Part shown: positions 2,145-25,234 of the stretch, one piece after another
How positions within the stretch are numbered: position 1 is the first letter of the stretch
Layout: every line of letters starts with the position of its first letter
Assembly (NCBI GenBank): GCA_015485525.1
Contig: WFTM01000433.1
Location: 1-32,000 of the forward strand
DNA from: Candidatus Zhuqueibacterota bacterium
GTDB lineage: Bacteria > Zhuqueibacterota > Zhuqueibacteria > Zhuqueibacterales > Geothermadaptataceae
Length of the DNA stretch: 32,000 nucleotides
Direction of reading: 5' to 3'
Translations under genes and position numbers: made by a program
Notes under the pieces: model-generated
The model's database searches: none
Seen by the model: the letters and a program-made list of their open reading frames with translations, nothing else
Told to the model about the DNA's origin: nothing

Positions 2145-2783
2145 TCATTTCACCAGCAAACTGACGCGCCGGTTGACGGGCAGGCCACGTCTGGTTTCAT
2201 CTTCCGGTTCACGCAACCGGGTATCGGCAAACCCCACTGCGACGAAGCGCTGCGGTACAAGCCCGTGATCGATCAGATAGCGGATTACGCGAGCGGAGCG
2301 CGCTGTGGAGAGCTCCCAGTTCGATGGATAGATCGCGTTTTTTGACAGAGGCAGGGTATCGGTGTGGCCCTCGACCTGGATGCTGCGGTCGGCGACTTCT
2401 GGTGTACGAAATATGGCTGCAATAGCGTCGAGCACAGGCCCTGCCTCTTCCTTCAATTCTGCCCGGCCGGAGGCGAAGAGAATCTTGTCCTGAAAATTCA
2501 GCAGCAGGCCATCTTTGGTCAGCTCAACATCGACACTTTCCTGCAACTGATATTCGGCGATGAGCTGCTGGAGTTTTTCTTCCAGTTGGTGCAGAGGCAT
2601 CTGGCGGCTCTCGCTGAAGTATTCCATGATCATCTCAAATTTGCTCTGATCAACCTGCGAGATGGCAAAAAAGAGCACAAAAAAAGCCAGCAGCAGCGTC
2701 ACGAGATCGCTGAAAGAGAGCAGCCAGGGTTGATCATCAGCAGCAGGCTGCCGGCGCAGGAGTTCGGGCATTTCGATTTGCAT
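2145..2783 (-). CDS. motB: MotB-type stator subunit: OmpA-like peptidoglycan-binding domain plus an N-terminal TM helix carrying the conserved Asp
   Basis: This is track ORF 2145..2894. I moved the start to the ATG at 2783 (MQIEMPELL), 4 nt after the MotA stop. The TM segment PWLLSFSDLVTLLLAFFVLFFAIS contains the MotB/ExbD-type protonatable Asp. The C-terminus IQVEGHTDTLPL...NWELSTARSARVIRYL...NRRVSLLV is an OmpA-family domain. Confidence 0.85.
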   Translation of the reverse strand: MQIEMPELLRRQPAADDQPWLLSFSDLVTLLLAFFVLFFAISQVDQSKFEMIMEYFSESRQMPLHQLEEKLQQLIAEYQLQESVDVELTKDGLLLNFQDKILFASGRAELKEEAGPVLDAIAAIFRTPEVADRSIQVEGHTDTLPLSKNAIYPSNWELSTARSARVIRYLIDHGLVPQRFVAVGFADTRLREPEDETRRGLPVNRRVSLLVK

Positions 2784-2787
2784 GGCC

Positions 2788-3594
2788 TTACGCTGCCTTT
2801 CTGATTTTCCTGCGCGCGCCGCTGTCCGCTCGGCTGAGCTTGAACCGCTCGGCCGGACTGAGCAGAGCAGCGAGTTTATCGCGGACGTACACATAATTCT
2901 GCTTATCGTACATCATCAGTACAGCCTCTACCTGCAGGGTTTCGTGCAGCAGATTTGCCTCCGCACGCTCCTTGATCTTGGCAGCAATCGGCGCAAAAAT
3001 CATATTGGAAAGAATCAGGCCGTAGAACGTCGTGGTCAGCGCGATCGCCAAACCGATGCCAACCTGCCCGGGCTGTTCCTGAAGTGTCATCAGCATATTG
3101 ATCAGACCGATCAGCGTGCCGATCATACCAAAGGCCGGTGCGATCCTGCTCATGGTCTGAAACAGCTCGCTCTGCTTGTGCTCGCGGACCATTTTCCAGC
3201 GTACATGGTCTTCGAGAATAGCCCTGGCCTCTTCGCGCGTGTAGCTGTTCGCGAGCATGGACAAGCCATCTTTAAGCACCCACAAGCCATTGAGATTCTT
3301 AATTTTTTCGCTCAACGCCTGCACGCCTTCTTTCTGAAAAATCCGCACAGCCATGACGATATTTTCGATCGCCTTGACATTGTCGTGCACGCCGGAACGG
3401 AAGATGACAAAATAACTCTTGAACCCTCGCAGGACTTCCGGGAAAGGAAACGAAACAAAGGTTGCCGCAATGGTGCCGCCCAGCACGATAGCAAGGCCCT
3501 GCCAGTTGACGAAAACCTCGGGCTCGGCGTTGCCGCTCAGGATGCCGGCGATAACGAGAAACCCGCCGACGAGTATTCCGAATAGTGTAGCCAA
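2788..3594 (-). CDS. motA: MotA/PomA-type stator channel subunit (4-TM MotA/TolQ/ExbB family)
   Basis: 268 aa. There are two N-terminal TM helices, a cytoplasmic loop of about 100 aa, then PAFGMIGTLIGLINML and LTTTFYGLILSNMIFAPIAAKI, the family signature helices. The tail is MotA-like. The start codon is TTG at 3594-3592, preceded by gaggagag 8 nt upstream, and an in-frame stop lies 4 codons upstream, so no ATG alternative exists. Confidence 0.85.
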   Translation of the reverse strand: MATLFGILVGGFLVIAGILSGNAEPEVFVNWQGLAIVLGGTIAATFVSFPFPEVLRGFKSYFVIFRSGVHDNVKAIENIVMAVRIFQKEGVQALSEKIKNLNGLWVLKDGLSMLANSYTREEARAILEDHVRWKMVREHKQSELFQTMSRIAPAFGMIGTLIGLINMLMTLQEQPGQVGIGLAIALTTTFYGLILSNMIFAPIAAKIKERAEANLLHETLQVEAVLMMYDKQNYVYVRDKLAALLSPAERFKLSRADSGARRKIRKAA

Positions 3595-10693: not shown

Positions 10694-12022
10694 TTACTGG
10701 CCTTTCTCCCGTTTCTTCTGAATTTTCTCAATTCTTCCGGCTGCTTCGCGGGCCTTTTTGTGCTCGGGATAATTTTTCAAAACCAGGTCATAGCAACCGA
10801 GGGCGCTTTCCAGATCATTGGCTTTGTTCTCATACAACCGGCCGGCCTTGACGAGCAGGTCAGGTGCCTTGTTATACGTCGGGAAAGCTTCAACGATCCG
10901 GACGTATTGCAGCGCGGCATTGACGTAATCCTTGAAACGGCGTTCATATAGATAAGCTGCCTCTTCCAGGGCTGGAATCGCCCTTTCATCATCGGAATAG
11001 TTGTCCGCAATCTCGAGGTAGGTGGCGATGGCACCGGCATAATCTTTTTTCTCATCTGTCTGGATTTCTGCAACCTGCAGCAAAGCATCGACAGCATACG
11101 GAGAGTCCGGGTACTGCTTGACGACACTGCGGTAGGTCACCATGGCAGCATCGGGCTGCTTGAGTTTTCTCTCTTCTACTTCAGCCAGCAGGAAGAGCGC
11201 ACGCGGCGCAACAGGACTTCTGGGCTGCTCAGATACGATCATTTTGAAGACCTCTGCAGCGTCTTCCGGCTTGTCGAGTTTTTTGTACAACAGCTCCCCC
11301 CGCCGGAAACGTACATCAGCGAGCTGGGGGCTCAATGGAAAAACACTCTCGAATTTAAACAACAGCGCGGCAGCCTGATGCTGTCTGCCGGCACGCAGAT
11401 ACATCCCTGCCTGCATGGCCAGCATTTTATCACCGCGGTCATCGTCCGGGAAACGCGTCAGCCAGGAGCGCGCTTCACGCAGCAGCCAATCGTTCAGGGA
11501 ACGGATATCCAGAGCATACAACGCCTTGACCAGAGCAAACCGCCGGCCCGCATCACTCTGGCCATCGCTGCCGTTCATCAACGCGAGTACAGCGTCAGCG
11601 TTTTTCTTAAAACTTTTCTCCTTAGCCACCAGGGCACGCACACGATCTCTGGCCACATCCAGGTCTTCAAAATCGGGATACAAAAACAACAACTTCAAAT
11701 ATGAGGCTATGGCCTCAGGTCGCTTCCGCTTCTCGGAATAGACCTCAGCAAGCATCGCCTGCACGCGTGGCGCATATTTGGAGAACGGAAACGTTTGATG
11801 AAAACTCTCCAGTTCCTCGATCAGCAGGGTGTAGTTTTTTTTCTCATGCTGGTCGTAAACATTTTTCAGCCAGTCAAAAACACGATCATCCTGCACGCCG
11901 GACTGCGGCTCCGGAACAACCACAGCACCCGGCGAGCCCGGGGCTTCCTGAAGCAACAGCAACACAGCCAGAATGATAATCTTAGCCAGTACAAACTGTC
12001 TTCTGCTTCTGCCATTTTCCAT
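10694..12022 (-). CDS. TPR-repeat protein (YbgF/BamD-like TPR_6 type) with an N-terminal signal anchor
   Basis: 442 aa. It starts MENGRSRRQFVLAKIIILAVLLLLQEAPG. Helical-hairpin units recur, each ending in ..YP(D/E)S(P)..(A)..A.. (for example VVKQYPDSPYAVDALLQVAEIQ and VLKNYPEHKKAREAAGRIEKIQ). It is the first gene of the minus-strand cluster. Confidence 0.8.
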   Translation of the reverse strand: MENGRSRRQFVLAKIIILAVLLLLQEAPGSPGAVVVPEPQSGVQDDRVFDWLKNVYDQHEKKNYTLLIEELESFHQTFPFSKYAPRVQAMLAEVYSEKRKRPEAIASYLKLLFLYPDFEDLDVARDRVRALVAKEKSFKKNADAVLALMNGSDGQSDAGRRFALVKALYALDIRSLNDWLLREARSWLTRFPDDDRGDKMLAMQAGMYLRAGRQHQAAALLFKFESVFPLSPQLADVRFRRGELLYKKLDKPEDAAEVFKMIVSEQPRSPVAPRALFLLAEVEERKLKQPDAAMVTYRSVVKQYPDSPYAVDALLQVAEIQTDEKKDYAGAIATYLEIADNYSDDERAIPALEEAAYLYERRFKDYVNAALQYVRIVEAFPTYNKAPDLLVKAGRLYENKANDLESALGCYDLVLKNYPEHKKAREAAGRIEKIQKKREKGQ

Positions 12023-12154
12023 GCCGGTACCCTCGTAAATTTGAATTCACCAAAAACGAAAATCGTTTTCGCGCTGTGCACTCCTGATGTCTTATCAAGG
12101 TCCGGATAACATAGGCAACACGGAAGAAAATTAAAAGATAATTGTGACATCTTG

Positions 12155-12178
12155 GGATTATCCATTTAACTCATCCAA
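12155..12178 (+). repeat. Solo family-A left-terminus-like sequence
   Basis: ttatccatttaactcatcca versus the A1 left end ctatccatttgactcagca (16 of 19 by eye). No matching right terminus was found. It directly abuts the family B cluster. Confidence 0.4.
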
Positions 12179-12189
12179 GCAGGCCTTGC

Positions 12190-12690
12190 GCAGGGAGCCA
12201 TCCCCGGTATTCCAGCCACAGAGAAGCGGTGTGACGAGAGGAAGCGGGGAAGAAAAACGTGACAAAACATCAACAAACCTTCAGCCCTATCGGATCAGTC
12301 ACGATCAGTAAAACAGACCCGGACGAAGCGAGTGCGGGCTCGCAGAAGCACACTCGCCTACAGCGTCACACTACTGAAGCGAAGCGGAGTGTCTGAATCT
12401 CCCCGGCATGGATGCGGCTTTTGGGGCAGGTGGTATTTCCTTGCGCTGGTGACCTGCCGCAGGAGCGGCAAGAGGGCGTCACACCGCAGGAGCGGTGTGA
12501 CGAGAGGAGACCTGGACGAAGCGAAGCAGTGTGCCGGCAAATCCCCGGCGTGGGTGCAGGCTTTTGGGGAGCGGTATTTCGTTTCGCTTGTGGACTGCCC
12601 CGCCGATGCGGGGCAACTGGGGCGTTACACCGCAGGAGCGGACGTTACACCGCGGGAGCGGACGTTACACCGCGGGAGCGGTGTAACGAG
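12190..12690 (+). repeat. Family B repeat cluster: one truncated unit (about 12190-12242) plus two tandem units (about 12316-12509 and 12510-12690)
   Basis: Units I and II align as ac(c/t)ggacgaagcga..gtg..aatc(t)ccccggc(a/g)tgg(a/g)tgc(g/a)gcttttgggg..ggtatttc..cgct.gtg.actgcc..gc..cgt(c/t)acaccgc-agga-gcggtgt(g/a)acgag. The terminal hairpin cgtcacaccgc-agga-gcggtgtgacg lies at 12477-12502. The same modules recur at 14413, 16711, 24742 and 24905. Confidence 0.8.
12623..12688 (+). repeat. Head-to-tail 20-bp triplication of the 5' arm and loop of the family B terminal hairpin
   Basis: cgttacaccgcaggagcgga (12623-12642), cgttacaccgcgggagcgga (12643-12662), then the complete hairpin cgttacaccgc-ggga-gcggtgtaacg (12663-12688). 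Confidence 0.85.
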
Positions 12691-12792
12691 GGCTTTTCAG
12701 ATATCGCGCTTTCTCTGTGCACTGTGCTTCTTCTGAAAGCAGAGTGCATGCGCAATCAGCAACCGTCATTCCAACCTCCGGAGAGTACCACA

Positions 12793-13167
12793 ATGTCACA
12801 TCTTCAGCTCAGCAGCAACCGGCTCCCGACCAACCGCCGGTCGGCTACACGAATTCAGACCTGGCGTATCCTGTCCTTTTTGAAAGATGACAGCTGGCAC
12901 ATCGGCTATGTCAAGGACATCAGCGAAACGGGCGTACAGATCATCTGCAGCACGCCGCTCTCTCCCGGCGAAAAAACGGCAATCCTGTTCGAAAATATCG
13001 AGCATCTCTGGAATATCATCGTGGAGGGGACGGTGGTGTGGCAGAAAAATTATCATGAGGACCAGGATCACCGGAACACAGAACCGACGATGGGGATTGA
13101 ATTTTTCCAGCGTCTGCCGGTTGAAATCACCCGCTTCGCGCGTGTAAAAATGCGCATGGCCGAATAG
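12793..13167 (+). CDS. Stand-alone PilZ-domain protein (predicted c-di-GMP receptor)
   Basis: This is the C-terminal 124 aa of track ORF 12412..13167. The start is set at the ATG at 12793, with ggagag 9 nt upstream; the ATG at 12748 is an alternative. Both PilZ signatures are present: RRSATR (RxxxR) and DISETG (D/NxSxxG). The upstream part of the track ORF reads through family B repeats. Confidence 0.8.
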   Translation: MSHLQLSSNRLPTNRRSATRIQTWRILSFLKDDSWHIGYVKDISETGVQIICSTPLSPGEKTAILFENIEHLWNIIVEGTVVWQKNYHEDQDHRNTEPTMGIEFFQRLPVEITRFARVKMRMAE

Positions 13168-13200
13168 AGCGACCGCACTCCTGCACAGGTGCCGGGTGTT

Positions 13201-13905
13201 TCACTGATACTGCGTCCAGGGGTAGAGCAGGTTGAGGGCCATAGTGAAAATCGGGCTGAATACCGAATCAAATACCTGCCAGGCGAGCAGGATACCGAGC
13301 AATGAAAACATGGGATTGTGGGAAAACTCCGCAAACCTGCGCGCTGCGCTCTCGCTGAGAAACAATCCGACAACCGCATTGCCATCCAGGGGCGGAACAG
13401 GTAATAAATTGAAGAAACCCAGCAACAGATTGAGCGCAAAAGTAATGCTCAGAAAACTCGCCATCGCTCCCCAGAAACCCGCCTGATGGGCTGCGACCAC
13501 CGTCGTATAGTTGACACTCTCCGGATTATAAAAATAACCCGCAGCGATACCTGCATGGATCAGAGCCGCGGCTATGAGCACCAGCACGAAATTCGCGACC
13601 GGGCCGGCCAAAGCCATCCATGCAGCCCGTTTCGGATAGCGGTCTGCCCACACCGGATCATAGGGCGCACTGGCCCAGCCCAGCATCCAGCCACTGAGGA
13701 TAAACGACAGAAACGGAATGACAACCGTGCCCACAGGCTCACGCTGCATGTGCGGCAAAGGGTTCAGGCTGACTTGTCCGGCCATGGCAGCGGTATCATC
13801 ACCACCGATTTTCGCAGCAAGGGCATGAGCAGCTTCGTGACAGGTAAGCGCAAACAGGAAACAGACGTACCAGATCGGTCCGAGGGCCAGGATATCTGAG
13901 GTCAT
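13201..13905 (-). CDS. Peptidase M50 (site-2 protease family) integral membrane metalloprotease
   Basis: It has an HExxH motif in a TM helix (LTCHEAAHALAA) and the second family motif FFNLLPVPPLDG. The protein is polytopic and hydrophobic throughout. Confidence 0.85.
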   Translation of the reverse strand: MTSDILALGPIWYVCFLFALTCHEAAHALAAKIGGDDTAAMAGQVSLNPLPHMQREPVGTVVIPFLSFILSGWMLGWASAPYDPVWADRYPKRAAWMALAGPVANFVLVLIAAALIHAGIAAGYFYNPESVNYTTVVAAHQAGFWGAMASFLSITFALNLLLGFFNLLPVPPLDGNAVVGLFLSESAARRFAEFSHNPMFSLLGILLAWQVFDSVFSPIFTMALNLLYPWTQYQ

Positions 13906-14412
13906 AATCTACCTTTTGGGTTACAGCCTGAAGAACACCGTTTGTGAAAGAATCGGGCTGAATGTGGCTATCGTCCGGTAAAGCCCGATACTTATAAGCC
14001 GCTTGGCAGGCTTCACACACTGACGGAAAAATAAAACACAACATCTTTATTTATAAAGAGTTAGAAAATTGCGCTGAATGTATGAAATTTGCCTGCAAAA
14101 GTCAAGAACAGGCATTCAGTCGGCGCCTACACTGAGCTGGAAACTCCAACATGGCACCGAAAAACGCTGGAGGGGAAACATACATCCCCGCCCACTCCAT
14201 ACGCCTGGCTTCTGAAAACGCCTGCCGCTCATCACCAACGCCAGAAAAATGTTACACTTTTTTCTAATTTCAACAAAAAAAACAGACCTGCTTCTTCCGC
14301 ATTCCAGTGCAAAAACGCTATAGTACTGAAGACAAGACAGCCTGAAAATTCAGATATGTATAAATTCCGCTCGATCAGATTTATTTTGAAACAGCGTGAC
14401 GCCTGCGCAGAT

Positions 14413-14523
14413 CGATTCCCGGCTCAGCGCTGCTCAAGGATAACAGGCTTTCGGGGCAGGCGGCATCCCGCTTCGTCTATGTACTGCCGCAGGAACGTCA
14501 CACCGCTGGAGCGGTATGACGCG
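14413..14523 (+). repeat. Family B repeat, shortened copy B3
   Basis: gattcccggc..ggataacaggctttcggggcaggcggcatcccgcttcgtctatgtactgccgcaggaacgtcacaccgc-tgga-gcggtatgacg is colinear with 12395-12502. The H4 hairpin is deleted and the terminal stem carries one C/A mismatch. Confidence 0.7.
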
Positions 14524-14674
14524 TGCAAGATGAGAGTACTGAACAGACTTGCTGTTGTTTTAAAAATGTGTTCGTGCAGAGAACGTATCCAAAAGAGATT
14601 CCTGCGCACAAGATAAAATGTACACCGACCGTCCACTCCGGCCGGGTGGATCGATTTACTAGGGAGAGTAACTA

Positions 14675-15400
14675 ATGAAGAAATTCGTCGTGGGGCTGCT
14701 GGTTTTCGGCATGGGCTATTTCAGTGTTATGCCGGCAGTACTGGCTGTGACGCAACAGGGGAGGCGCATCGTTATCGCCGTGGTTGACTTCAAGAACAAC
14801 AGCGGCAACCCTCAGCTCGATAACTTCGAACAGGCCATCCCGGAAGCACTGATCACCAACCTTGCCCGCAATGAACGCATCGAAATCGTCGAACGCACCC
14901 AATTGCAGAATGCCCTTTCAGAGCTGCAACTGAGCATGTCCGGCATCGTCGATGCGCGTACGGCTGTGGAGGTCGGCCGTGCAGTCGGGGCAACGGCGAT
15001 CCTGGTCGGCAGTTTTCTGCAGATCGAAGGGCGCATTCAGATCAACGCCCGCCTGATCGATGTGCGCACCAGCCGGGTTTTGAAGGCAGCAGGGGTTCGC
15101 GGGCGCAGCGGAGCGGAAATCTTTGAACTCATGGACAGACTGGCCGCTTCCATCGAAGCGCGCCTGTTTGGCAAAAGTGTTCCGCAGACGCAAAACAGAA
15201 CGTCAGTAAACGGAGCATCGCGCCAGCGCAGTAACGCGAATGCTGCTGAAAAGTCCGGTGGTTCGTTTCTCAGCTCACCGATCTTTTGGGGTGCCATGGC
15301 GCTTGGGGCCGGAGCCGGGGCTTTCCTCGTTTTGGGGGCTACGGAAGATGAACCAGCCAAAACCGCGGTGACCATCACCATTTCTCTGCCCGACAGATAA
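14675..15400 (+). CDS. CsgG/FlgO/LpoB-like periplasmic alpha/beta-domain protein with a C-terminal hydrophobic segment
   Basis: The SD agggagag lies 7 nt upstream. The signal peptide is MKKFVVGLLVFGMGYFSVMPAVLA. The block RIVIAVVDFKNNSGNPQLDNFEQAIPEALITNLARNERIEIVERTQLQNALSELQLSMSGIVD...ATAILVGSFLQIEGRIQINARLIDVRTSRVL is the pattern shared by CsgG, LpoB, FlgO and TolB-N-like proteins. A C-terminal segment FLSSPIFWGAMALGAGAGAFLVLGA follows. Confidence 0.65.
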   Translation: MKKFVVGLLVFGMGYFSVMPAVLAVTQQGRRIVIAVVDFKNNSGNPQLDNFEQAIPEALITNLARNERIEIVERTQLQNALSELQLSMSGIVDARTAVEVGRAVGATAILVGSFLQIEGRIQINARLIDVRTSRVLKAAGVRGRSGAEIFELMDRLAASIEARLFGKSVPQTQNRTSVNGASRQRSNANAAEKSGGSFLSSPIFWGAMALGAGAGAFLVLGATEDEPAKTAVTITISLPDR

Positions 15401-15519
15401 ACCCGGGAAAAGCATCCCGATGCATGCGCGATTCATCACATCACGCAGGGATAGCGGAATAAATACCAGAAACCGAAAAAAAGAACAAATGATAACCATC
15501 ATGGAAACAAGGCGTTATA

Positions 15520-16530
15520 ATGAAACGGACTTTGTATAACTCCCTGATCATAACAGGCATTTTCCTGCTCCTGCACAGCTGCGGACGCCTGCCGGGTTCT
15601 GCTTCGCGCAGCACGCAGGTCAACCTCGAAATTGATATCTCAGAAAAAGCTATTGGAAAAATTTCACCGGGCAAACAGATCGCCGGGCCTGAGACAGTGA
15701 TCATCACAGTCACAGCACCTGATATCACCGATCCCATCGTCGTTACAGCAGGTATCATCGGCCGCCGTGCGCAGGTGGATGTGGATGTTCCTCAGGGTGA
15801 ATCGCGAACATTTACGCTGGAAATCACCGGGCCACGTGGCTTTATCTGGTACACCGGCACAAAGACGGTGGACCTGACCGAGCAGCAACTGAGCATGGCA
15901 ATCCGCGCAGTAGATGCGTGGACAGATGCCGGCAATTCGTCCCTCGACCCGGCGCAGATCACCAACGTTGTCTGGGCCAGCGCTATAGACGCTGCTTTTG
16001 CTGAGGAAATCGATTTGCCACCCGACGAGGAGGTGTATTTCTGGGGGCTGGCTTTTTACATGGGTGCAGGAGAGATCAAACCCGATGAATACGAAGTTGC
16101 GGCCTACATTGGCAACCTGGCAGATGGTTCAGCACAGCAGTTTGTTTCCGGAAATCCGGCGCTCACCGCAGAACAGTGGAACACCATCCCGATCAGCTGG
16201 AATGATGAAGAGGCCGCGTTGATTTCCGGAAAAATCAACATCGGCCTGATCTACAAAACCGATCTCGGCCAGCCGCGGATCGGCTATGAACCGAAGAATT
16301 CGGCAAAGACCTGGTTTTTCTCGCCCAGCTCCGGCACCTGGCTGAATGTGGCCAATGATCTCTCCTCGATCAATCCCGGTGCTCTCGCTGTGCGCGCGCT
16401 CTTTTTACGGCGTACCCTGCCTGCGGCGGATCCGCAGAGTCTGATCGCCATCTCGCCTGATGGCACTGTAGAAAAATGGCCGATCACTCACGGGCAGATT
16501 TCCAGCCAGACCCTGCACCAGGTGCGCTGA
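15520..16530 (+). CDS. Lipoprotein of unknown function
   Basis: MKRTLYNSLIITGIFLLLHSCGRLPG carries a lipobox (LHSC). It is 336 aa and I recognise no family motif. Confidence 0.7.
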   Translation: MKRTLYNSLIITGIFLLLHSCGRLPGSASRSTQVNLEIDISEKAIGKISPGKQIAGPETVIITVTAPDITDPIVVTAGIIGRRAQVDVDVPQGESRTFTLEITGPRGFIWYTGTKTVDLTEQQLSMAIRAVDAWTDAGNSSLDPAQITNVVWASAIDAAFAEEIDLPPDEEVYFWGLAFYMGAGEIKPDEYEVAAYIGNLADGSAQQFVSGNPALTAEQWNTIPISWNDEEAALISGKINIGLIYKTDLGQPRIGYEPKNSAKTWFFSPSSGTWLNVANDLSSINPGALAVRALFLRRTLPAADPQSLIAISPDGTVEKWPITHGQISSQTLHQVR

Positions 16531-16608
16531 AACCGGCTGCAGTTTACAGCGCAGATGACACACTTCAGCCTCGCTCGCTGCGAGGTGTTCTGTCAGAAAA
16601 CTTCTATG

Positions 16609-16663
16609 AACAACAAACCCCGGCCGCCATCGTCCTCAACGATGCAGCCGGGGTTTGTTGTTT
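16609..16663 (+). terminator. Long perfect hairpin, probably a rho-independent (bidirectional) terminator after the lipoprotein gene
   Basis: aacaacaaaccccggc (16609-16624) pairs perfectly with gccggggtttgttgtt (16647-16662). The GC core ccccggc/gccgggg is followed by tttgttgttt. The loop contains an inner catcg/cgatg stem. Confidence 0.55.
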
Positions 16664-16710
16664 GCGGTGGCAGGGGCAGTTATGTGAGCATACAAGTGCG
16701 GGCGACAAAA

Positions 16711-16883
16711 CGTTCGTAGTGCACGCTTTAGCGTGCCTGAAACCCGCCAACCTTCCGGGAGTACCGGAGTACCCCCGGAATGGATGCTGGCTTCCAGAGC
16801 CGCGAGTATCCCGCATCGCTCGTGGGACTGCCCCGCGGAAGCGGGGCAACAGGAACGTCTCACCGCAGGGGCAGTATGAGAGA
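16711..16883 (+). repeat. Family B repeat, full-length copy B4
   Basis: cgttcgtagtgcacgctttagcgtgcctgaaacccgccaaccttccgggagtaccggagtacccccggaatggatgctggcttccagagccgcgagtatcccgcatcgctcgtgggactgccccgcggaagcggggcaacaggaacgtctcaccgcaggggcagtatgagaga is colinear with the reverse complement of 24905-25080. Confidence 0.8.
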
Positions 16884-16885
16884 AT

Positions 16886-17152
16886 ATGAAGAAAAGCCTT
16901 TACGCTTTTGCCATCTCAGATTTCATCATTTTGCAACAACCAGCCCCATTTGCTCAAGATCCGTGTGCAAAAGGCCGAAACCCGGAATTCACCTCCCCTC
17001 GGTCTGCGCACATGCCGGATGGTCGGTACACAAAGGTAATGTACAAACCCAATACTTCACACGTCGCACACCACGCACGAGTATCGGGTTTCTTCATTCT
17101 GACTAAGGACGACTCGCATGGACGCGATGACCCACACCCGGATGGAATCTGA
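16886..17152 (+). CDS. Possible small secreted protein (88 aa) or remnant of a paralogous gene 5' end
   Basis: ATG start. The N-terminus MKKSLYAFAISDFIILQQPAPFAQD resembles the signal peptide of the adjacent giant protein (..VFLIQPAPSFTQD). The SD is weak, third-position GC looks lower than in neighbouring genes, and I recognise no domain. Confidence 0.3.
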   Translation: MKKSLYAFAISDFIILQQPAPFAQDPCAKGRNPEFTSPRSAHMPDGRYTKVMYKPNTSHVAHHARVSGFFILTKDDSHGRDDPHPDGI

Positions 17153-17182
17153 ACCGACTACGCTATCGACAAGGAGCCGGCA

Positions 17183-20100
17183 ATGCGGTTTGTGCAGTTA
17201 TCCGCTATCATCACTCTCGTTTTCCTCATCCAACCTGCACCTTCTTTTACCCAGGACCTGAAGTTTTCAGACATCTCCAGAGCCGCAGGCATCGCCTCGC
17301 CGCTGGACACAACGGGTTACGGCCATGGTGCCAGCGTCGCTGATTTCAACAACGACGGCTATCCGGATATCTATCCGGCGATGTATGAAATATACAACCC
17401 GCTCTACCTCAACAACCACGATGGCACCTTCAGCAATCAGGCTTCTGCCTGGACAGTTGGCGGCAAGAAAGCCTGGCTCGACCGTGGCATTGCAGCCGCG
17501 GATTATAACAATGATGGCAACATCGATATACTGCTCAACAACGCCTGGGAGCCCAGCGCCCTGTTCCGCAACGACGGCTCGTCATTCACCGACGTAGCCA
17601 CAGATCTGTGGATCAACTTCCGCGGACAGGCTCAGGGTGTCCTCTGGTTTGACATGAACAACGACGGGCTGCTGGACCTCTTTTTCCCGAGTTACAGCTC
17701 CGAGTCCGAGCTCTACGTTCAACGCAGCGACGGCAAGTTCGAAAACCGCACAGGTGCAGCCTGGCTGGGAAACACCAAATACGCGATTTCCGCCATCGCC
17801 GTGGATGTGAACAACGACGGATTTCTGGATATGTTCGTCACCCGGGGCGAGGGTTACAGCAACCTGCTGCTGATCAACCGCAACGGCTCCACCTTCAGTG
17901 ATGAAGCCGCGAAACGGGGTATAAGCGACACCAGCGCTCATGCCCAGGGCCTCACTGCCGGAGATTTCGATAATGACGGCGATATCGATATCTACGTCGC
18001 CAATGCGACCGGCACCAACATGCTCTACCGCAATAACGGCAGCGGTTATTTCCGCGACGAAGCCTGGAATCTCGGCGTCGGCGACTGGCATCGATCTCTG
18101 GGTGCACACTTTGCTGATTTTGACAACGACGGCTGGCTGGACCTGTATGTGGTCAATTTTGGCAGCAACCGCCTGTATCACAACCAGGGGGATGGCAGTT
18201 TCCGCGAGGCAAACTCCAGCGGTGCGGGCGGCCAGTCATTCTGGGCCAGCTATGGCTCCGCAGTAGCGGATTTCGATCAGGATGGCGATCTCGATATCTT
18301 CTTCACCAACTCCGGCCAGGAGAGCACGCTCTTCGACAACCAGACCGAGGCGGGGAACTGGATCGACATCGCCCTCGAGGGCAGCCGCAGTAACCGGGAC
18401 GGTATCGGCGCCAAGGTGGATTTCTGGGCCAACGGGCGCATCCATCACAACCAGATGCGCGCTTCGGACGGTTTTGTTTCAGGTGCAATTCTGCCCATGC
18501 ACTTCGGGCTGGGCAGCGGCACCTACGCAGACAGCATCATCGTGCGCTGGCCTTCGGGCACGGTGACGAAGCTGTTCACCGTTGATTCTAACCAGAAAAT
18601 TCTCGTCAAAGAAGAAGGCACGACGACCTACAGGCGCTTTGAAATCAACTTCAGTGAGGCGCAGGACAGTGGGCTAGACAGTTTCGCGCTCACCGGTGAT
18701 ATCGCTGTCATCGACATCGACCGGGATGAACGTCCGGATATTTTCGCCACCGGCAACCGGGGCAGCGAGTTCTTTCTCCTGCGCAACGAAGGTACCGGCC
18801 GCTTTGTGCGCAGTGACAGCAGCTTTGGCCTGACAGCACCCAGAAGCTCTGGTGTCACATCTTTCCTTTTTATCGATTTCGATGCTGATGGCGACAGTGA
18901 CCTGCTCACGGCCGAGACCCAGTCTGGCCAGGCACAGCTCGCTTTGTACAGATTCGATGCAGGGAAATTTTTCAGGGACACTGATGTTCTTCTGCCGCAA
19001 ATCGAAGCCGACAGCGTGCACTTCATGTTTTTCGGACAGATCGATCCGGATGGCATCGATGACCTGTTCCTGATCGCTGGCGCGCAGCGCAGAGCCCTGA
19101 TTTTCCTCGGTAACCGGCAGGGTGGATTCACCCAGTCACAGAGTAGTGCTTTCCTGCCCGAGGGAATCGGCAACAGCCGGCTCGTCGATTTTGACCGTGA
19201 CGGCGATGTCGATTTGTTTCTCGAACGCAATGGCGTAGTTGAGCTGTATGACAACCGCAGCGGTGAATTCAGCCGTATTTTCCCCCCTGGCCTGCCGGCT
19301 GGCAGCGCCCTCAAGTCCTTTGAGATCGCGGACATGAATTCCGATGGTCTCCCCGACCTGCTGATCAGCCAGACCAGCAGTCCGGCCTATGCCATCTATA
19401 CGTATGACGGCAGCAGCTTTGGTAAAACCTGGGAGCAGGAAGCTGCCGCAGAAGTGCCGGTCTCTGATATTGCCGCAGCTCTGGTTCTCGATCTGGAGAA
19501 TGATGGCGATCTGGATATGATGCTGCCTTCGGCGCAAAATAAATTGCATGCCAACCAGGGGGATGGTACGTTCCGGCCCATCGACAACTCGCGTTCCGGC
19601 CTGCCTGCTGACCTGCCCGGTGCACGCCACACCCTCACGCTCGACAGCAACGGCGATGGCCTCACCGACGTGCTTTTTATCTCAATGGAGGGTTCGGCCT
19701 CCCTGTTCAGAAACGCTTTCAGCGACGCTCGCAACTGGCTGAACGTCCGCGTCGCAGGCCACAACGGCCGCATGCCGGCTGCAGGTGCCGTCGTCCGGCT
19801 GCTGGCAGAAGACGGCCAGCCCGTTGCTCTGCGCATGCTCGACGCCGGCAACAGCAACGGCCGCCAGCAGAGCTCCCTGCTCCATTTTGGTCTCGGAGAT
19901 CGCGACCGGGCCGACCTTGTCATCGATTTCCCCGGCGGCCAGAGCAGAAGTTTCACCGCCGTCCCCTCACGCCAGCTCTTTGACGCTGCCCTTGACCGGC
20001 CAGTCGTCACGATCATTTCTCCGCAGGATCAGAGCACGGTTTATGGCGACAGTATCCGGGTTCACGGTGCGGTTTGGGATGCAACGATCAGCACGGTCTC

Positions 20101-22141
20101 GATCAACGGAGTGGGTGTTCCGGTGCTGGGTGGGGAGTTCAGCCATGTGCTTGCTGTAACAGCAGGGATGACCAGTCTGACAGTTTCAGCGACTGACAGC
20201 CAGGGCAGAGAAAGCCGGGCCAGCATCGAAGTAGTGGTGGTGGAAGACCGCACCCCGCCGGCGCCTGCCGATATTCTGCTCATGCCCGTGCTGCCGCGCG
20301 TGGTCATGCAGGTGAGCACGGACGAGCCGGTGCGCCTGCTGCTGGAATATGGCTCGAAACAGCGGGCGACGCAAAAATTCTACGCGACGACTTCCATCGT
20401 TCTCGATGATCTCGAATCCGACTCGATCTATTCCGCGCGTCTGACCCTGACAGACAGAGCCGGCAATACCACGATACAGGAGCTGAAGCGCTTCATGCCC
20501 TATCCCGCACAGTTTCGTCTCAGCCTGCCGGCCGGAGCCTTTGCCCCACAATCCGGTCACTCCATAGCCGGCCAGGCAGGGACAGAGCTGCCACCGGGTG
20601 ACAGCCTGACTGCCGCGGTGAGCATCCCTGAAGACGATACCTATTTTGTTCTGCTCGACAGTGAAAGCCGTCTGAATACGCAGGTTCTGCTGAAAATCGG
20701 TGATTCTGAGCGCATGCTGGCGGTTGGGAAAGATGACCTCTCCCCTCGCCTGGCACGCTTCACCCTGCCTGCCGGCGAGTATGATCTGATCTTAAAAAAT
20801 GCGGCCAGCGACAGCAGTGGCCCGGATGTGTTGAACATCCGTGAGGTGACGATACTGGGGCCGGATGCCGGTGACATTCTGCCTCCTTTGCTTGTAAATC
20901 TGAATACCGAAGTCCTCTCCCCTACCTCGTTGCGCCTGCGCTGGCAAACCGACGAACCTGCTGCAGGCAGCGTAATTTACCGGCTCCTCGGAGGAGCAGA
21001 TTCCCTGCAGACCGATTTCGGTTTTGCTGCCGAACAGGATATCGTCCTGGAAAATCTCTGGCCGGACTCGACATATCTCTACACGATTTCTATGCGGGAC
21101 AGTGCCGGGAACAATGAAGTTTATGCGGGCAACAGCTTCTTCATCGCTGTCAAAAGCGATTCTGTCCCCCCCGAACTCTCCGGCATTTTTGCTCTGCAGA
21201 CAGGCAAGCGCAGCTTTCGTTTCAGATGGAAAACCGATGAACCCAGCCGTAGCTGGGTTGAGATCAACGGTGCCGGCAGCGCTCTTCGCAGCGATATCAG
21301 TACCAGGTATTCGCGGCTGCACGAGCACACCATCACGGCGCCAGAGGCAGAAGGCAACTACACCGTGCGCCTGCTGGCCAGAGATTATGGGGGCAATACC
21401 GCTGCGGCAGATACGAGCCTGCTGCTCCCGGATGGTAATTTTATCGCTTTTTTCGAGGCCGGAACCGTGCAGGAGCGCACGGGTGGGACGATAGCGGAAA
21501 ACGGCGGCTGGCTGGCGCACTCTGCAGGCTATCTCGGGCAGAGCATCTCCCTGCCGGATAGCGGGAACTACCGCCTGCGCTTCGCGGCACGCAGCCTGGC
21601 AACCGGTGCTTCGCCGCAGGTAACCCTCTCAGCCGGAGGTGATTCGCTGGCAACCTTCGCGGTCGCAGGAGACAGCCTGCAACGTTTTGCCGCCCAAATT
21701 TCTCTTCCGGCTGGTGACTCCGATCTCCGCCTGGCGTGGCAGGATGTGAACCCGGCAGACAGCTCAGCCTTTCTTCAGATTGACTGGCTGGATGTCAATA
21801 AATTACCTATGACAACGGGTGTCGTGGACGGACAGCAGCTGGCTGTGCCAACGAATTTCCAGGTCTCTGCCGCCTATCCCAACCCATTTAATCCGAGTAC
21901 GGCGATCAAAATTTCTGCGCCTGAGACGGCAAAAATACGTGTGTTGATTTTCAATATCACCGGACAAATCATTTTCAGCCGGGAACTCGGGAGAGTGAAT
22001 GCAGGAGAGTATGTCTTTCGCTGGAATGGACGCGATGATAAGAACAGAGTCGCAGGCAGCGGCGTGTATTATGCCCGAATCGAGATACAGAGCGCCAAAG
22101 GGATGGAATTTTTCGTGCGCAAACTCAGTCTGCTCAAATGA
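17183..22141 (+). CDS. Giant secreted FG-GAP/VCBS-repeat protein with two ASPIC/UnbV domains, Ig/Fn3-like and CBM-like modules and a type-A T9SS C-terminal sorting domain
   Basis: The SD aaggag lies 7 nt upstream. There is a signal peptide. FG-GAP-type repeats recur (DFNNDGYPDI, DYNNDGNIDIL, DMNNDGLLDLF, DFDNDGDIDIYV, DFDQDGDLDIFF and others). Two UnbV/ASPIC blocks are present (RSNRDGIGAKVDFWANGR...HFGLGSGTYADSIIVRWPSGT, and a second ending HFGLGDRDRADLVIDFPGGQ). Three Fn3-like modules (..LRLRWQTDEP.., ..FRFRWKTDEP..) are interleaved with two CBM-like modules. The C-terminus is AYPNPFNPSTAIKI...GEYVFRWNGRDDKNRVAGSGVYYARIE...RKLSLLK. Confidence 0.9.
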   Translation: MRFVQLSAIITLVFLIQPAPSFTQDLKFSDISRAAGIASPLDTTGYGHGASVADFNNDGYPDIYPAMYEIYNPLYLNNHDGTFSNQASAWTVGGKKAWLDRGIAAADYNNDGNIDILLNNAWEPSALFRNDGSSFTDVATDLWINFRGQAQGVLWFDMNNDGLLDLFFPSYSSESELYVQRSDGKFENRTGAAWLGNTKYAISAIAVDVNNDGFLDMFVTRGEGYSNLLLINRNGSTFSDEAAKRGISDTSAHAQGLTAGDFDNDGDIDIYVANATGTNMLYRNNGSGYFRDEAWNLGVGDWHRSLGAHFADFDNDGWLDLYVVNFGSNRLYHNQGDGSFREANSSGAGGQSFWASYGSAVADFDQDGDLDIFFTNSGQESTLFDNQTEAGNWIDIALEGSRSNRDGIGAKVDFWANGRIHHNQMRASDGFVSGAILPMHFGLGSGTYADSIIVRWPSGTVTKLFTVDSNQKILVKEEGTTTYRRFEINFSEAQDSGLDSFALTGDIAVIDIDRDERPDIFATGNRGSEFFLLRNEGTGRFVRSDSSFGLTAPRSSGVTSFLFIDFDADGDSDLLTAETQSGQAQLALYRFDAGKFFRDTDVLLPQIEADSVHFMFFGQIDPDGIDDLFLIAGAQRRALIFLGNRQGGFTQSQSSAFLPEGIGNSRLVDFDRDGDVDLFLERNGVVELYDNRSGEFSRIFPPGLPAGSALKSFEIADMNSDGLPDLLISQTSSPAYAIYTYDGSSFGKTWEQEAAAEVPVSDIAAALVLDLENDGDLDMMLPSAQNKLHANQGDGTFRPIDNSRSGLPADLPGARHTLTLDSNGDGLTDVLFISMEGSASLFRNAFSDARNWLNVRVAGHNGRMPAAGAVVRLLAEDGQPVALRMLDAGNSNGRQQSSLLHFGLGDRDRADLVIDFPGGQSRSFTAVPSRQLFDAALDRPVVTIISPQDQSTVYGDSIRVHGAVWDATISTVSINGVGVPVLGGEFSHVLAVTAGMTSLTVSATDSQGRESRASIEVVVVEDRTPPAPADILLMPVLPRVVMQVSTDEPVRLLLEYGSKQRATQKFYATTSIVLDDLESDSIYSARLTLTDRAGNTTIQELKRFMPYPAQFRLSLPAGAFAPQSGHSIAGQAGTELPPGDSLTAAVSIPEDDTYFVLLDSESRLNTQVLLKIGDSERMLAVGKDDLSPRLARFTLPAGEYDLILKNAASDSSGPDVLNIREVTILGPDAGDILPPLLVNLNTEVLSPTSLRLRWQTDEPAAGSVIYRLLGGADSLQTDFGFAAEQDIVLENLWPDSTYLYTISMRDSAGNNEVYAGNSFFIAVKSDSVPPELSGIFALQTGKRSFRFRWKTDEPSRSWVEINGAGSALRSDISTRYSRLHEHTITAPEAEGNYTVRLLARDYGGNTAAADTSLLLPDGNFIAFFEAGTVQERTGGTIAENGGWLAHSAGYLGQSISLPDSGNYRLRFAARSLATGASPQVTLSAGGDSLATFAVAGDSLQRFAAQISLPAGDSDLRLAWQDVNPADSSAFLQIDWLDVNKLPMTTGVVDGQQLAVPTNFQVSAAYPNPFNPSTAIKISAPETAKIRVLIFNITGQIIFSRELGRVNAGEYVFRWNGRDDKNRVAGSGVYYARIEIQSAKGMEFFVRKLSLLK

Positions 22142-22160
22142 CCGGAAAATTTACTTACAG

Positions 22161-22200
22161 AAAAAGCCCGGCAGCGAGCTCGTTGCCGGGCTTTTTTGTT
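22161..22200 (+). terminator. Rho-independent terminator of the giant gene
   Basis: aaaaaGCCCGGCAgcgagctcgtTGCCGGGCttttttgtt lies 20 nt after the stop codon. Confidence 0.8.
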
Positions 22201-22239
22201 CCGATCAATTCTCATGCCCCCCTTGCGCAGATAAGACAC

Positions 22240-22572
22240 TCAGCCTCGACTCCCCTGCATCGGAGGCTGGTCACGGTCGCCGGGGCGGCGCATGCGTGCG
22301 CGCGAAAACTGCCACAGCAACAGGACAACAAATGTCAGAATGACGAGCACGATCGTGACAGGATAGGGTTCAAACTCAAACCAGCGCTCATACTGGCTCT
22401 GATTTTGTGGAGAAGCTGAGAGCGGGGAAAACAGGGCGAGAGAAAGCAGCAGAGAAAAGCCCGGATAACTGGCAGCAAAAACGCGGAACAGCCCTCGCCG
22501 GCGTGCTGATGATGGAAAAAATCCGGATGATTTCAGCGAGGGTCTTCGGGGGGGCACTTCAGTACTGTTCAT
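22240..22572 (-). CDS. Possible small membrane protein (110 aa), unknown function
   Basis: ATG start. It has two hydrophobic segments (FSLLLSLALFSPLSA and VTIVLVILTFVVLLLW). I saw no recognisable family and no convincing SD. Confidence 0.3.
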   Translation of the reverse strand: MNSTEVPPRRPSLKSSGFFPSSARRRGLFRVFAASYPGFSLLLSLALFSPLSASPQNQSQYERWFEFEPYPVTIVLVILTFVVLLLWQFSRARMRRPGDRDQPPMQGSRG

Positions 22573-22903: not shown

Positions 22904-24364
22904 CTATTTGATCCGTACCAGCTCGATTCTCCTGTTGGCCCGCCGCCCTTCTGCAGTTTCATTCGGCGCGATAGGGTTCGCTTCGCCATACCCTGTGCAG
23001 ATCAGGCGTGCCGGCTCGACTCCTTTACTGATCAGAAAAGCACGCACGCTGTTGGCCCGGCGCAGGGACAGGCGCAGATTGCTCTCCGCATGGCCGCGGT
23101 TGTCTGTGTAACCGCGGATTTCCAGCGAGATATCCTGCTCCTGTTTGAGAATACGCGCGATCTTTTCCAGAATTTGATAACTGGTGCTGCTGAGCCGATC
23201 CGAGCCGCTGTGAAAACTCACGCCTTCCATCACCCGGCGCTCCCCGATGCGCAACCAGGGCAACGTGTCCGGCGCGCCGTCGTCGTCCTGATAGCCGTTG
23301 ACAGTTTCGGGATGATTTGGGGCTGCATCTTCAACGTCCGGGATGCCATCGCCATCATTGTCCGGATCGGGGATACCATCCTGATCCTGAAAACCATCCT
23401 TGTCTTCAGCTACATTGGGTGCGGCATCGCGCACATCAGGGATACCGTCGCCATCATTGTCCGGGTCCGGCATGCCGTCGCTGTCTTCAAAATCATCGAA
23501 ATCCTCGGCATGATCCGGTGCTGCATCCTTGCTGTCCGGAATGCCGTCGCCATCGTTATCGAGGTCCGGAATGCCGTCATGGTCTTCAAATCCATCCATG
23601 TCCTCGGCTTCATTCGGTGCCGCATCCCGCAGGTCCGGAATGCCGTCGCCATCATTATCCGGGTCAGGCGCGCCATCGTGATCGGCGAAACCATCGAAAT
23701 CTTCCGGGTTGTACGGGTCGCTGTCCTCGGAATCATAGATACCGTCACCATCTTTATCCGCGTCACTTTTGAAGTGATACATGAAACTGAGGTTGGCGTT
23801 GAGAAAACCGTCGGCATCGTTGCGGGCCACACGACCGTCGAGGCCATCGGAGAAGGCGTAGTTGTAGTTTCCGGAAAACTGCACCGACCACCTGGGCGTG
23901 AGCAGAATTTCAACCCCGGCACCAAACAGAGCGACTTCTTCCCATCCCTGGAACTCCTGCCCATCCTGACTTTTCAGCGGGCTGGTGCGGTCAGGGCCAA
24001 AGGCACGGTAGCGCAGCCCACCGGCACCGCTGTAAATATAGGGCGAGACGCGCATTTCCGGAAAGAACAGCAGGATGACACTCAGTTTTGCATCGAAAAT
24101 GTCGGTATAGAACTGGTTGAACGGTATCTCATCGCGCAGAGCGCTATAGCCGGAATTGATCTGCAAGCCGAGAAACGGAAAAGGCATAACCCGGGCAAGA
24201 AAGGATACCGAAGGTGTGTACCCGCTTCGCTGCAAGTCTCCCTGATAGTGTTGAACCCCTGTCTGTATGCCGATGCCAATCGGGCCGCGTTTGAACTGTG
24301 CAGTGCCGGGTTCGGCCATGAACAAGAAACTCGAGGCGAGAAGCAAGATCAATTGGGTGCGCAT
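22904..24364 (-). CDS. OmpA-family outer-membrane protein: N-terminal beta-barrel, thrombospondin type-3 (Ca-binding) repeats and a C-terminal OmpA peptidoglycan-binding domain
   Basis: This is track ORF 22904..24394. The start is set at the ATG at 24364 (MRTQLILLLASSFLFMAEPGTAQ), with aggagg 7 nt upstream. It contains repeated DxDxDGxxDxxD units and the C-terminus LEIRGYTDNRGHAESNLRLSLRRANSVRAFL...RRANRRIELVRIK. The 591-aa plus-strand ORF 22763..24538 is its antisense shadow. Confidence 0.9.
   Translation of the reverse strand: MRTQLILLLASSFLFMAEPGTAQFKRGPIGIGIQTGVQHYQGDLQRSGYTPSVSFLARVMPFPFLGLQINSGYSALRDEIPFNQFYTDIFDAKLSVILLFFPEMRVSPYIYSGAGGLRYRAFGPDRTSPLKSQDGQEFQGWEEVALFGAGVEILLTPRWSVQFSGNYNYAFSDGLDGRVARNDADGFLNANLSFMYHFKSDADKDGDGIYDSEDSDPYNPEDFDGFADHDGAPDPDNDGDGIPDLRDAAPNEAEDMDGFEDHDGIPDLDNDGDGIPDSKDAAPDHAEDFDDFEDSDGMPDPDNDGDGIPDVRDAAPNVAEDKDGFQDQDGIPDPDNDGDGIPDVEDAAPNHPETVNGYQDDDGAPDTLPWLRIGERRVMEGVSFHSGSDRLSSTSYQILEKIARILKQEQDISLEIRGYTDNRGHAESNLRLSLRRANSVRAFLISKGVEPARLICTGYGEANPIAPNETAEGRRANRRIELVRIK
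23300..23695 (-). repeat. In-frame tandem repeat, four units of 99 bp (33 aa) encoding TSP3 units
   Basis: The protein period is D234, D267, D300, D333 in track numbering. The unit is DGF.D.DG.PD.DNDGDGIPD..DAAPN.AED. The repeat lies inside the OmpA-family CDS. Confidence 0.85.
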
Positions 24365-24741
24365 ATCGAACCTCCTGGGTCGCGAAAAGTCCATCCCGGT
24401 AGAGTCAGAAAATTTATCATTCGCTTAAAAACCAGAATACCTCCATCAAAGGGCATACCAAACAGCCCCCTGAAAAATTTTCAGCCATCACCGGGATGGG
24501 GACTGCGATGCACGTGGCGTGCCACAGTCCGGTGGTGAATTCCGGTTAAACAGAGTTATCGGCAGAGCAGAAAGAAATATAGCCCAAAAGTAACAACCCG
24601 GAGACATGTCCGGAATAACCGCAAAAGAATCAGAAGATTAGGTCAGATAAAAAAAATCAGTCACTCAGGCGATGTGGTGCATCAACTGAAAAAATGTGTC
24701 ATATTTTGAACCAAAACGGGAAGTGGCACCCTGGCAGTCGA

Positions 24742-24904
24742 GGAAGATTCCGGCACTTTGCTTCTGCCGGGATGAAGAGACAGGCATGCAAGTCACCAGT
24801 ATTGCACCGGTGGGAACAGGCGCCTGCAGGGAACTGAAACCGTATCCATTCCGAGGGGACTCCGGTACTCCCGGAAAGCTGGCGATTTTCAGGCATTTCG
24901 AACG
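24742..24904 (-). repeat. Family B repeat, variant/partial copy B6 (inverted orientation)
   Basis: The reverse complement reads acgttcgaaatgcctgaaaatcgccagctttccgggagtaccggagtcccctcggaatggatacggtttcag...gaagcaaagtgccggaatcttcc. It shares the ccgggagtaccggagt / ggaatggat module and the gaagc..gtgccgg..aatc module with the other copies, and lacks H4 and H5. Confidence 0.55.
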
Positions 24905-25080
24905 TTCTTCTCGTCACACCGCTCCTGCGGTGTGACGTTTCTGTTGCCCCGCTTCCGCGGGGCAGTACCACGAACGAAATGAGACACCGCCACCTCTGAA
25001 AGGCAGCACCCAGTCCCAGGGGACTCCGGCACTCCCGTAAAGTTAGCGGCTTTCAGACACGATTAATCGTGCACCAAACG
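24905..25080 (-). repeat. Family B repeat, full-length copy B5 (inverted orientation)
   Basis: The reverse complement reads cgtttggtgcacgattaatcgtgtctgaaagccgctaactttacgggagtgccggagtcccctgggactgggtgctgcctttcagaggtggcggtgtctcatttcgttcgtggtactgccccgcggaagcggggcaacagaaacgtcacaccgcaggagcggtgtgacgagaaga. Confidence 0.8.
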
Positions 25081-25234
25081 TTTCGCTTCTCGCACTTGCA
25101 TTCCAACCTTACTGCAATTGCTGCTGCAGAGTTCGGTTCCACATCCCCTGGCCCGGATGCAGGCATCACACGATGTGGGGGGAGAGCCAAAATACAGGTA
25201 CGGTGGTATTTTGTAAGATTTGGGAATTCTCAGG

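Follow-up and report, generated by a model that had tools for sequence, protein, structure and literature searches.

A probable composite REP mosaic, family B, in an uncultured FCB-type lineage: a five-hairpin unit with end modules that flank RAYT genes of two clades in other bacteria

The intergenic repeat named family B in the window (the whole stretch of DNA analyzed, 32 kb long) is, with a probability of about 80%, a composite, BIME-like REP mosaic in an uncultured FCB-type lineage, in which the closest genome bears the NCBI label “Bacteroidetes bacterium HyVt-473.” REP repeats are small mobile hairpins that are spread through bacterial genomes by domesticated RAYT transposases. The two end modules of the family B unit, hairpin H1 and the hairpin doublet H4-H5, were each shown, by comparison of sequences, to be the putative cognate flanking repeat of a different RAYT (HUH/Y1 family) clade in other bacteria. 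This finding, together with polymorphism at orthologous sites, bears out one of the two readings offered in a preliminary description of the window, namely, a REP/BIME-like mobile hairpin mosaic. In length and in amount of structure, the unit exceeds classical REPs and BIMEs.

Architecture of the unit and covariation of its stems

Five hairpins, H1, P2, P3, H4, and H5, follow one another in a fixed order in the family B unit of about 170 nt, and each of them folds locally. H1 (gcacgc-ttta-gcgtgc) is a GTAG-tagged stem-loop that forms the first module and has no inverted partner inside the unit. P2 is a long hairpin in which the outer stem, CYGRAAG/CTTTCRG, encloses a hypervariable inner hairpin, and P3 is a short hairpin between P2 and H4. 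H4 (ctgccccgc-ggaa-gcggggca, in a short or a long form) and H5 (cgtcacaccgc-agga-gcggtgtgacg) make up a double palindrome; the tops of both read CGC-NGGA-GCG, and a GAGRGGA tail follows H5. H1, H4, and H5 are palindromes of 16 to 26 nt. The modules quoted in the preliminary description, including the ccgggagtaccggagt block, are all present. They stand in one direct order throughout, and arrays run head to tail with 2 to 5 copies. The ends of the unit (ACGTTCGTAG... and ...GTGTGACGAGAGGA) are not complementary, that is, there are no terminal inverted repeats, and no target-site duplication of family B is evident.

Compared with dinucleotide shuffles, the two full copies in the window fold better, with z scores of −3.3 and −5.4, and the opposite strand of family B copies folds too. 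For the analysis of covariation, 32 full family B units were aligned with MAFFT, and pairs were counted on a manual five-helix structure of 37 pairs; RNAalifold run on the alignment recovered only parts of H1, H4, and H5. Standard pairs fill 86% of the cells (32 units, 37 pairs), compared to 24 to 48% in controls with slid partners. Changes on both sides were found at 12 pairs (shuffle mean, 7.6; at least 12 in 5 of 500 shuffles), and the observed covariation score was reached by none of 500 shuffles, a control that overstates the significance, the units being related. Two pairs of H1 account for 13 A-U/G-C swaps and 14 C-G/A-U swaps. The compensatory changes in H1 and H5 and the symmetric shortening of H4 (tgccgc/gcggca at about 12450), which had been read from the letters of a few copies, are real, and the stems covary across the 32 units. 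GTAG lies 5' of H1 in most of these units, the variants being GCAG, GTCG, and TGGT. A reading of H5 as a palindromic operator was set aside: both stem variants occur in one genome with paired changes, and such variants fit base-pairing better than recognition by a protein dimer.

Counts of G-U and A-C pairs on the sense strand are balanced in H1, P2, H4, and H5, and P3 favors the sense strand (46 G-U versus 8 A-C), largely through one inherited G-U pair. With the exception of P3, this strand test does not decide between RNA and DNA folding. The window gave 0 Rfam matches at the gathering score and nothing relevant at E ≤ 5 over positions 12000 to 25300, and a literature search with the exact repeat sequences returned chance matches only. 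Inside the units, a scan for promoters of the sigma-70-like type and for intrinsic terminators found neither, and H5 lacks a T-run.

Copies in the window

The inventory of family B, made with nhmmer, comprises two full units, two units without H1 and the 5' part, and three fragments, at four loci in 32 kb. The earlier tally of “at least seven units” was an overcount. The copies and the genes that border each locus are as follows.

16707..16884, plus strand: full unit; GTAG tag 16716-19, H1 16721-36, P2 about 16737-16798, P3 about 16800-26, H4 16828-48, degenerate H5 16856-82; between the 336-aa gene (plus; 15520..16530, its terminator) and the 1652-aa FG-GAP/T9SS gene (plus; its conserved upstream region)
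24902..25084, minus strand: full unit; H1, P2, and P3 intact, H4 24943-24966, perfect H5 24912-24937; between the DNA-alkylation-repair gene (minus) and the OmpA/TSP3 gene 24394..22904 (minus), upstream of the latter
24819..24895, minus strand: 5' fragment that stems from a second unit and consists of the P2 part alone (HMM positions 30-103)
12386..12510, plus strand: 5'-truncated unit; HMM positions 54-180, short H4 tgccgc/gcggca, perfect H5 12477-12502; locus in the divergent region between the TPR gene (minus) and the PilZ gene (plus)
12529..12690, plus strand: 5'-truncated unit; left arm of H5 triplicated with a 20-nt period (12620-12690), then a closing right arm
12223..12243, plus strand: solo 3' half of H5 with its tail (gcggtgtgacgagagga)
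14443..14532, plus strand: 3' half of a unit; P3, H4 remnant, H5 14496-14521, in which a single pair is broken; between the M50 peptidase gene (minus) and the CsgG-like lipoprotein gene 14675..15400 (plus)

The two full copies are colinear, and the identity of roughly three quarters estimated by eye was measured at 78 to 80%: positions 16719-16879 align with the reverse complement of 24914-25074 over 161 nt, ungapped, at 80%, and BLASTN matches the copies at 78% across about 195-196 nt. Hairpins H1, H4, and H5 had been assigned to both copies. H5 as quoted is perfect in 24905-25080, and H5 of the focal copy, 16711-16883, is degenerate (cgtctcaccgc-aggg-gcagtatgagag). H1 reads gcacgC/Gcgtgc in one full copy and gcacgA/Tcgtgt in the other, and H5 reads gtCac/gtGac at 12477 and gtTac/gtAac at 12663. 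The fragment at 24819..24895 adjoins the full unit 24902..25084 on its downstream side, lacks H1, and has its 3' part swapped for unrelated sequence. Patterns for H5, H4, and ccgggagtaccggagt each match three to four times in the window, where shuffles would lead to an expectation of 0 to 0.17.

Tandem copies of half an H5 were found in the window (12620-12690) and also in other contigs (L085, about 1620-1702; L005, 2518-2545; L011, L025, L046, and L067), and solo right halves of H5 (GGAGCGGTGTRACGAG) come after complete hairpins in several phyla. The half-H5 tandems could be the footprint of cutting and rejoining by a RAYT or of replication slippage.

Genes were called with a codon log-odds caller trained on the syntenic genes of the window; a crude longest-ORF call was dropped, given that its spurious ORFs cross the GC-rich repeats and make orientation data unreliable. 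With the codon model, and in agreement with two syntenic relatives, every family B copy is intergenic, as the preliminary description had it. The longest ORF of the window (22763-24538, plus strand, 591 aa) is a shadow of the real OmpA gene (22904-24394, minus strand), which contains 99-nt periodic thrombospondin-type-3 repeats at 23264-23758; a look-up of the exact OmpA protein sequence returned no record.

Polymorphism at orthologous sites

Two homologues of the 336-aa protein were detected, both on syntenic contigs, L086 (93% identity) and L087 (65% identity), and the synteny of L087 is complete from the TPR gene to the DNA-alkylation gene. A search of L087 at E ≤ 1 found family B nowhere, including the regions upstream of the PilZ, CsgG-like, FG-GAP, and OmpA genes. 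In L086, family B occupies all three of the family B intergenic regions that the contig covers, with unit numbers that differ from those of the window. Upstream of the FG-GAP gene, for example, the window has one unit and L086 has two, interleaved with the internal part of another repeat, and the spacer has a length of 406 nt (L087), 652 nt (window), or 1152 nt (L086). All three keep the stretch of about 210 nt that adjoins the FG-GAP start codon; family B lies distal to it, just past the terminator of the upstream gene. The conserved stretch (window 16975-17183, L087 9880-10020, L086 5925-6131; it includes ...ggatggaatctgaaccgac...caaggagccggcaATG) probably serves the FG-GAP/T9SS gene as its true promoter or 5' UTR.

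Family B thus shows both presence/absence and copy-number polymorphism at orthologous sites, and its copies are variously truncated, halved, or broken by nested insertions. To judge from these sequence comparisons, it behaves as an inserted, expanding repeat, not as a conserved leader. The same observations bear on a reading of the units as tandem small-RNA genes, each with its own promoter and terminator. NsiR1 and LhrC are known layouts of this kind, and head-to-tail arrays of 2 to 5 strongly structured copies resemble them; nevertheless, many copies are fragments, the family is absent from the syntenic relative L087, and the units show neither the promoter and terminator signals scanned for nor a T-run after H5, so that this reading is scarcely credible.

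A second repeat, family A, of about 240 nt, occurs in the window at 1712-1937 and 31188-31424, with a partial inverted copy at 29213-29331. It looks like a MITE: inverted repeats of about 26 nt form its two ends (GTCTGGCTATCCAnTTnACTCAGCA ... TGCTGAGTnAACTGGATAnCCGGA; DNA fold z = −6.4), and HyVt-473 has many copies of it, at 85 to 90% identity. Family A interrupts family B units in other contigs (L099; L013:4034-4221), and its internal part lies between family B units in L086 (5190-5365 and 5511-5650).

The H4-H5 doublet flanks RAYT genes in several phyla

The H5 pattern GTYACACCGCNGGAGCGGTRTRAC was searched in genome contigs, with one genome per species. Among the matches listed are more than 85 loci, about 40 of which are contigs of HyVt-473; there, H5 recurs every 165 to 180 nt, often at contig ends, and the repeats alone are common to the window and the HyVt-473 loci. 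Confinement of the copies to this locus by local duplication, a case that the preliminary description had foreseen, is therefore not what was found, and, with copies scattered across dozens of contigs, local duplication is rejected as the sole explanation. The other H5 loci among the matches listed belong to Nitrospirales, Thermodesulfobacteriota, Desulfobulbaceae, Chromatiaceae, Sedimenticola, Hydrogenedentota, and others, and all of them have a short, H4-like hairpin (SCGC-NGGA-GCGS) before H5 and GAGRGGA after it. The complete 170-nt unit was found with nhmmer in the window's lineage only. Nitrospirales CAZLII01 (L018, L030, L048, L060, L070, and L074) has its own longer multicopy family around H4-H5, with the common 5' part gactggtccgaatcgccggagtgctgccaagtat; a lineage-specific extension of the REP doublet is thus not unique to the window's lineage.

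In the Desulfobulbaceae contig L005, the only two H5 matches flank a single ORF (2667..3200, 177 aa), 150 nt upstream and 28 nt downstream of it. The encoded protein scores 100 bits on the NCBIfam model NF047646, “REP-associated tyrosine transposase” (cutoff, 80); it is not recognized in Pfam, and its match to PDB 4ER8 (TnpA-REP) is weak. The clade of this protein has more than 3,000 relatives, many of them annotated as RayT. In L082, a RAYT is flanked by H5 in the same manner, with extra copies in both orientations. Homologues at 55 to 70% identity were found in Thermodesulfobacteriota B35, Thiocapsa marina, and Pseudomonas sp. Ost2, and doublets of the same architecture flank all three. RAYTs flanked by H4-H5 occur in L005, L082, and L088-L092. 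The stems of the doublets covary between taxa (GTTCCACCGC/GCGGTGGAAC, GTGACACCGC/GCGGTGTCAC, and GTTCCCACGC/GCGTGGGAAC). Because the doublets flank the genes of this RAYT clade and their stems covary between taxa, H4-H5 is considered the putative cognate repeat of the clade. In both the Desulfobulbaceae contig (L005, 2667-3200) and Thermodesulfobacteriota B35 (L088 and L089, 3001-3534), the RAYT gene lies between cbiC and cbiD, a shared site that, on the gene order seen, would fit a domesticated transposase that has been inherited vertically.

H1 is a GTAG-tagged REP associated with a second RAYT clade

The H1 pattern GTTYGTAGTGCRCGMTTYAKCGYGC, a 25-mer with the GTAG tag, occurs in more than 120 metagenome contigs among the matches listed, and the listed metagenome copies are mostly inverted pairs or short tandems. 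H1 flanks a second, distant RAYT clade (87 to 88 bits, NF047646) in L159, L163, L126, and L100; in L159, GTAG-REPs are located on both sides of the RAYT gene, inverted, with GTAG outermost. A superfamily of GTAG-tagged REPs has already been described (Di Nocera 2013, PMC3733652), and H1, an independent REP, fits this superfamily. The possibility that the unit matches an already described Rfam or REP family, which the preliminary description had raised, has accordingly a split outcome, with no match in Rfam and a published REP superfamily (PMC3733652) for H1.

A search for RAYT genes, proposed at the outset, likewise gave a divided result. RAYTs flanked by H1 or by H4-H5 were found in other lineages; in contrast, HMM searches of all ORFs detected no RAYT of either clade in about 300 kb of lineage DNA. 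This DNA, a fraction of each genome, takes in the 32-kb window and L086 as well as about 40 contigs of HyVt-473 and those metagenome contigs in which family B occurs. The names of the cluster members included no RAYT from the window's lineage. RAYT-driven activity in the window's genome is therefore something that we infer, given that this DNA yielded no RAYT gene.

The missing RAYT gene would suit a MITE moved by a non-RAYT transposase, or else a dead relic that spreads by recombination and local duplication, and arrays clearly do change through local duplication while MITE-like family A coexists and intermingles with family B. Such an origin is quite unlikely nonetheless: the ends of the unit are not mutual inverted repeats, no target-site duplication is evident, both end modules specifically flank RAYT genes elsewhere, and about 40 or more separate HyVt-473 contigs among the matches listed carry copies. 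A REP mosaic remains the preferred reading, and family B has what is expected of a REP/RAYT system: intergenic palindromes, many dispersed copies, a GTAG foot, differences at orthologous sites, and, in other lineages only, RAYT genes flanked by the repeat.

Comparison with known repeat systems and a proposed mechanism

GTAG-tagged REPs in combination with RAYTs (“REPtrons”) were reportedly treated by Nunvar in 2010, Ton-Hoang in 2012, and Messing in 2012. H1 shares with GTAG-REPs the stem-loop of 6 to 7 bp, the nearly invariant GTAG directly at the 5' foot, subfamilies with complementary stem changes, high copy number, extragenic location, and, in L159, the inverted arrangement around a RAYT gene with GTAG outermost. 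Unlike GTAG-REPs, H1 of family B is never free-standing or paired in inverted orientation but always the first of five hairpins, and a RAYT was not found in the lineage DNA searched.

Family B resembles the BIMEs of E. coli in being a mosaic of REPs and fixed linkers, in forming tandem arrays of variable length, and in its intergenic location. In E. coli BIMEs, two REP types, Y and Z, alternate in inverted orientation, with a single RAYT, whereas family B shows no such alternation: its hairpins all stand in direct order and bring together REPs that belong to two RAYT clades. Like family B, the BOX elements of pneumococci and the mosaic intergenic regions of Neisseria are modular, with a variable number of modules, stable predicted folds, and interleaving with other repeats, but they have no sequence relationship to it, and no RAYT link is known for either. 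Terminal inverted repeats with target-site duplication, which characterize MITEs, were not found in family B; family A does have terminal inverted repeats.

“Double palindromic TIRs” flank TIRYT/RAYT genes (Di Nocera 2013, PMC3733652, Figs 8-9). H4 and H5 are, like these, adjacent stem-loops that are located on both sides of a RAYT-family gene and also form a dispersed repeat family, and we infer from the text of the publication that H4-H5 and the TIRs are the same thing. In contrast to the TIRs as presented there, H4-H5 has a constant architecture and an almost constant sequence in several phyla and is strongly co-oriented with neighbor genes. The REPINs of Pseudomonas (Bertels & Rainey 2011, PMC3116915) are comparable in that family B appears to be a nonautonomous, RAYT-dependent repeat with populations of sequence variants and that H1 is often an inverted doublet in metagenome loci. 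Unlike a REPIN, however, the family B unit does not consist of two inverted REPs that form one long hairpin.

By analogy with the known biochemistry of E. coli TnpA-REP and the TnpA of IS200/IS605, the hairpins of such a REP mosaic would arise where DNA becomes single-stranded, such as the replication fork. The stem-loop and its tag would be bound by a RAYT, which would cut and rejoin the strand, so that copies would be seeded in intergenic DNA, and the arrays would then grow, shrink, and become truncated through slippage and unequal recombination. Each hairpin would have to stay recognizable in the process, and the compensatory changes between copies would arise because the hairpins are kept as the recognized feature.

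The nearly identical REP double palindrome and its RAYT clade span Desulfobacterota, Gammaproteobacteria, and Nitrospirota, and the repeats reach an FCB-type lineage, where one repeating unit unites two REP classes, each linked to a RAYT clade of its own. It is useful for the annotation of MAGs to recognize these repeats, at which assemblies break; they form the ends of many HyVt-473 contigs.

Orientation relative to genes and the question of a role as RNA

At the four loci in the window, the direction of the units is that of the downstream gene. The downstream genes (PilZ, CsgG-like lipoprotein, FG-GAP/T9SS, and OmpA) are functionally unrelated. Family B arrays overall are co-oriented with the downstream gene at 31:9 (p = 7e-4), and at 9:1 between tandem genes, compared to 12:14 for the upstream gene. 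For H5 in four genomes of other phyla, the ratio is 21:10, and 10:2 between tandem genes; with these phyla pooled in, co-orientation between tandem genes is 19:3. The median distance from family B copies to the start codons that follow them is about 140 nt; between tandem genes, the copies are usually closer to the end of the upstream gene.

Co-orientation of this kind is atypical for REPs. It could be caused by selection on transcripts or by a replication-strand bias of insertion, which, combined with the leading-strand bias of genes, could produce part of the effect; against a pure strand bias, both strands of the window carry units within a span of 8 kb, and these units nevertheless have the direction of the local gene. 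Published REP families are found mostly at gene 3' ends and between convergent genes (PMC3733652), and, in view of this preference, some RNA-level role of, or constraint on, family B is conceivable, at low probability. The co-orientation and the position upstream of genes in this lineage bear on whether REPs act as RNA.

One form of such a role would be a cis-regulatory RNA leader or protein-bound structured RNA that is transcribed with the downstream gene, in line with the first of the two original readings; its NGGA loops (AGGA, GGGA, and GGAA) could act as protein or ribosome decoys or as a 5' stabilizer. The orientation of 31:9 and the median distance to start codons agree with this, as do the covarying stems, the P3 excess of sense-strand G-U pairs, and the likeness of the loops and the GAGRGGA tail to Shine-Dalgarno or GGA motifs. 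A leader should, however, be conserved at orthologous genes, and in L087 the element is missing from all four orthologous leaders, even though the promoter-proximal 210 nt are kept; furthermore, relatives at 93% identity differ in the number of units, truncated and halved copies occur, as do copies broken by another repeat, the downstream genes are unrelated, Rfam has no match, transposase genes are flanked by these modules, H1, H4, and H5 give a balanced strand test, and copies between tandem genes usually lie nearer the end of the upstream gene. With this evidence, a leader or structured noncoding RNA is decidedly improbable, and the candidate “new structured RNA” is removed, a known mechanism accounting for the repeat. 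There is no evidence of a conserved regulatory RNA. A reading of the NGGA loops as a CsrA sponge was set aside, as the element behaves as mobile DNA; of the features of CsrB/RsmZ-like RNAs, NGGA loops are present, and the search of the units for sigma-70-like promoters and terminators was negative.

The REP mosaic and the orientation of its units can be joined in a further reading, itself unlikely. The unit would be one mobilizable cassette with a GTAG-REP as its left end and the double palindrome as its right end, served by two RAYT clades, and these ends would correspond to the hairpins that IS200/IS605 elements have at their left and right ends; the co-orientation would then reflect exaptation of the unit, which would be transcribed and act as a 5' RNA module, for example, as an mRNA stabilizer or as a protein or ribosome decoy by way of its NGGA(G) loops.

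Finally, a possible small ORF occupies positions 16885-17106 of the window, with its ATG right after the family B unit (MKKSLYAFAISDFIILQQ...), and L086 has a similar start (ATGACGAAAAACC...).
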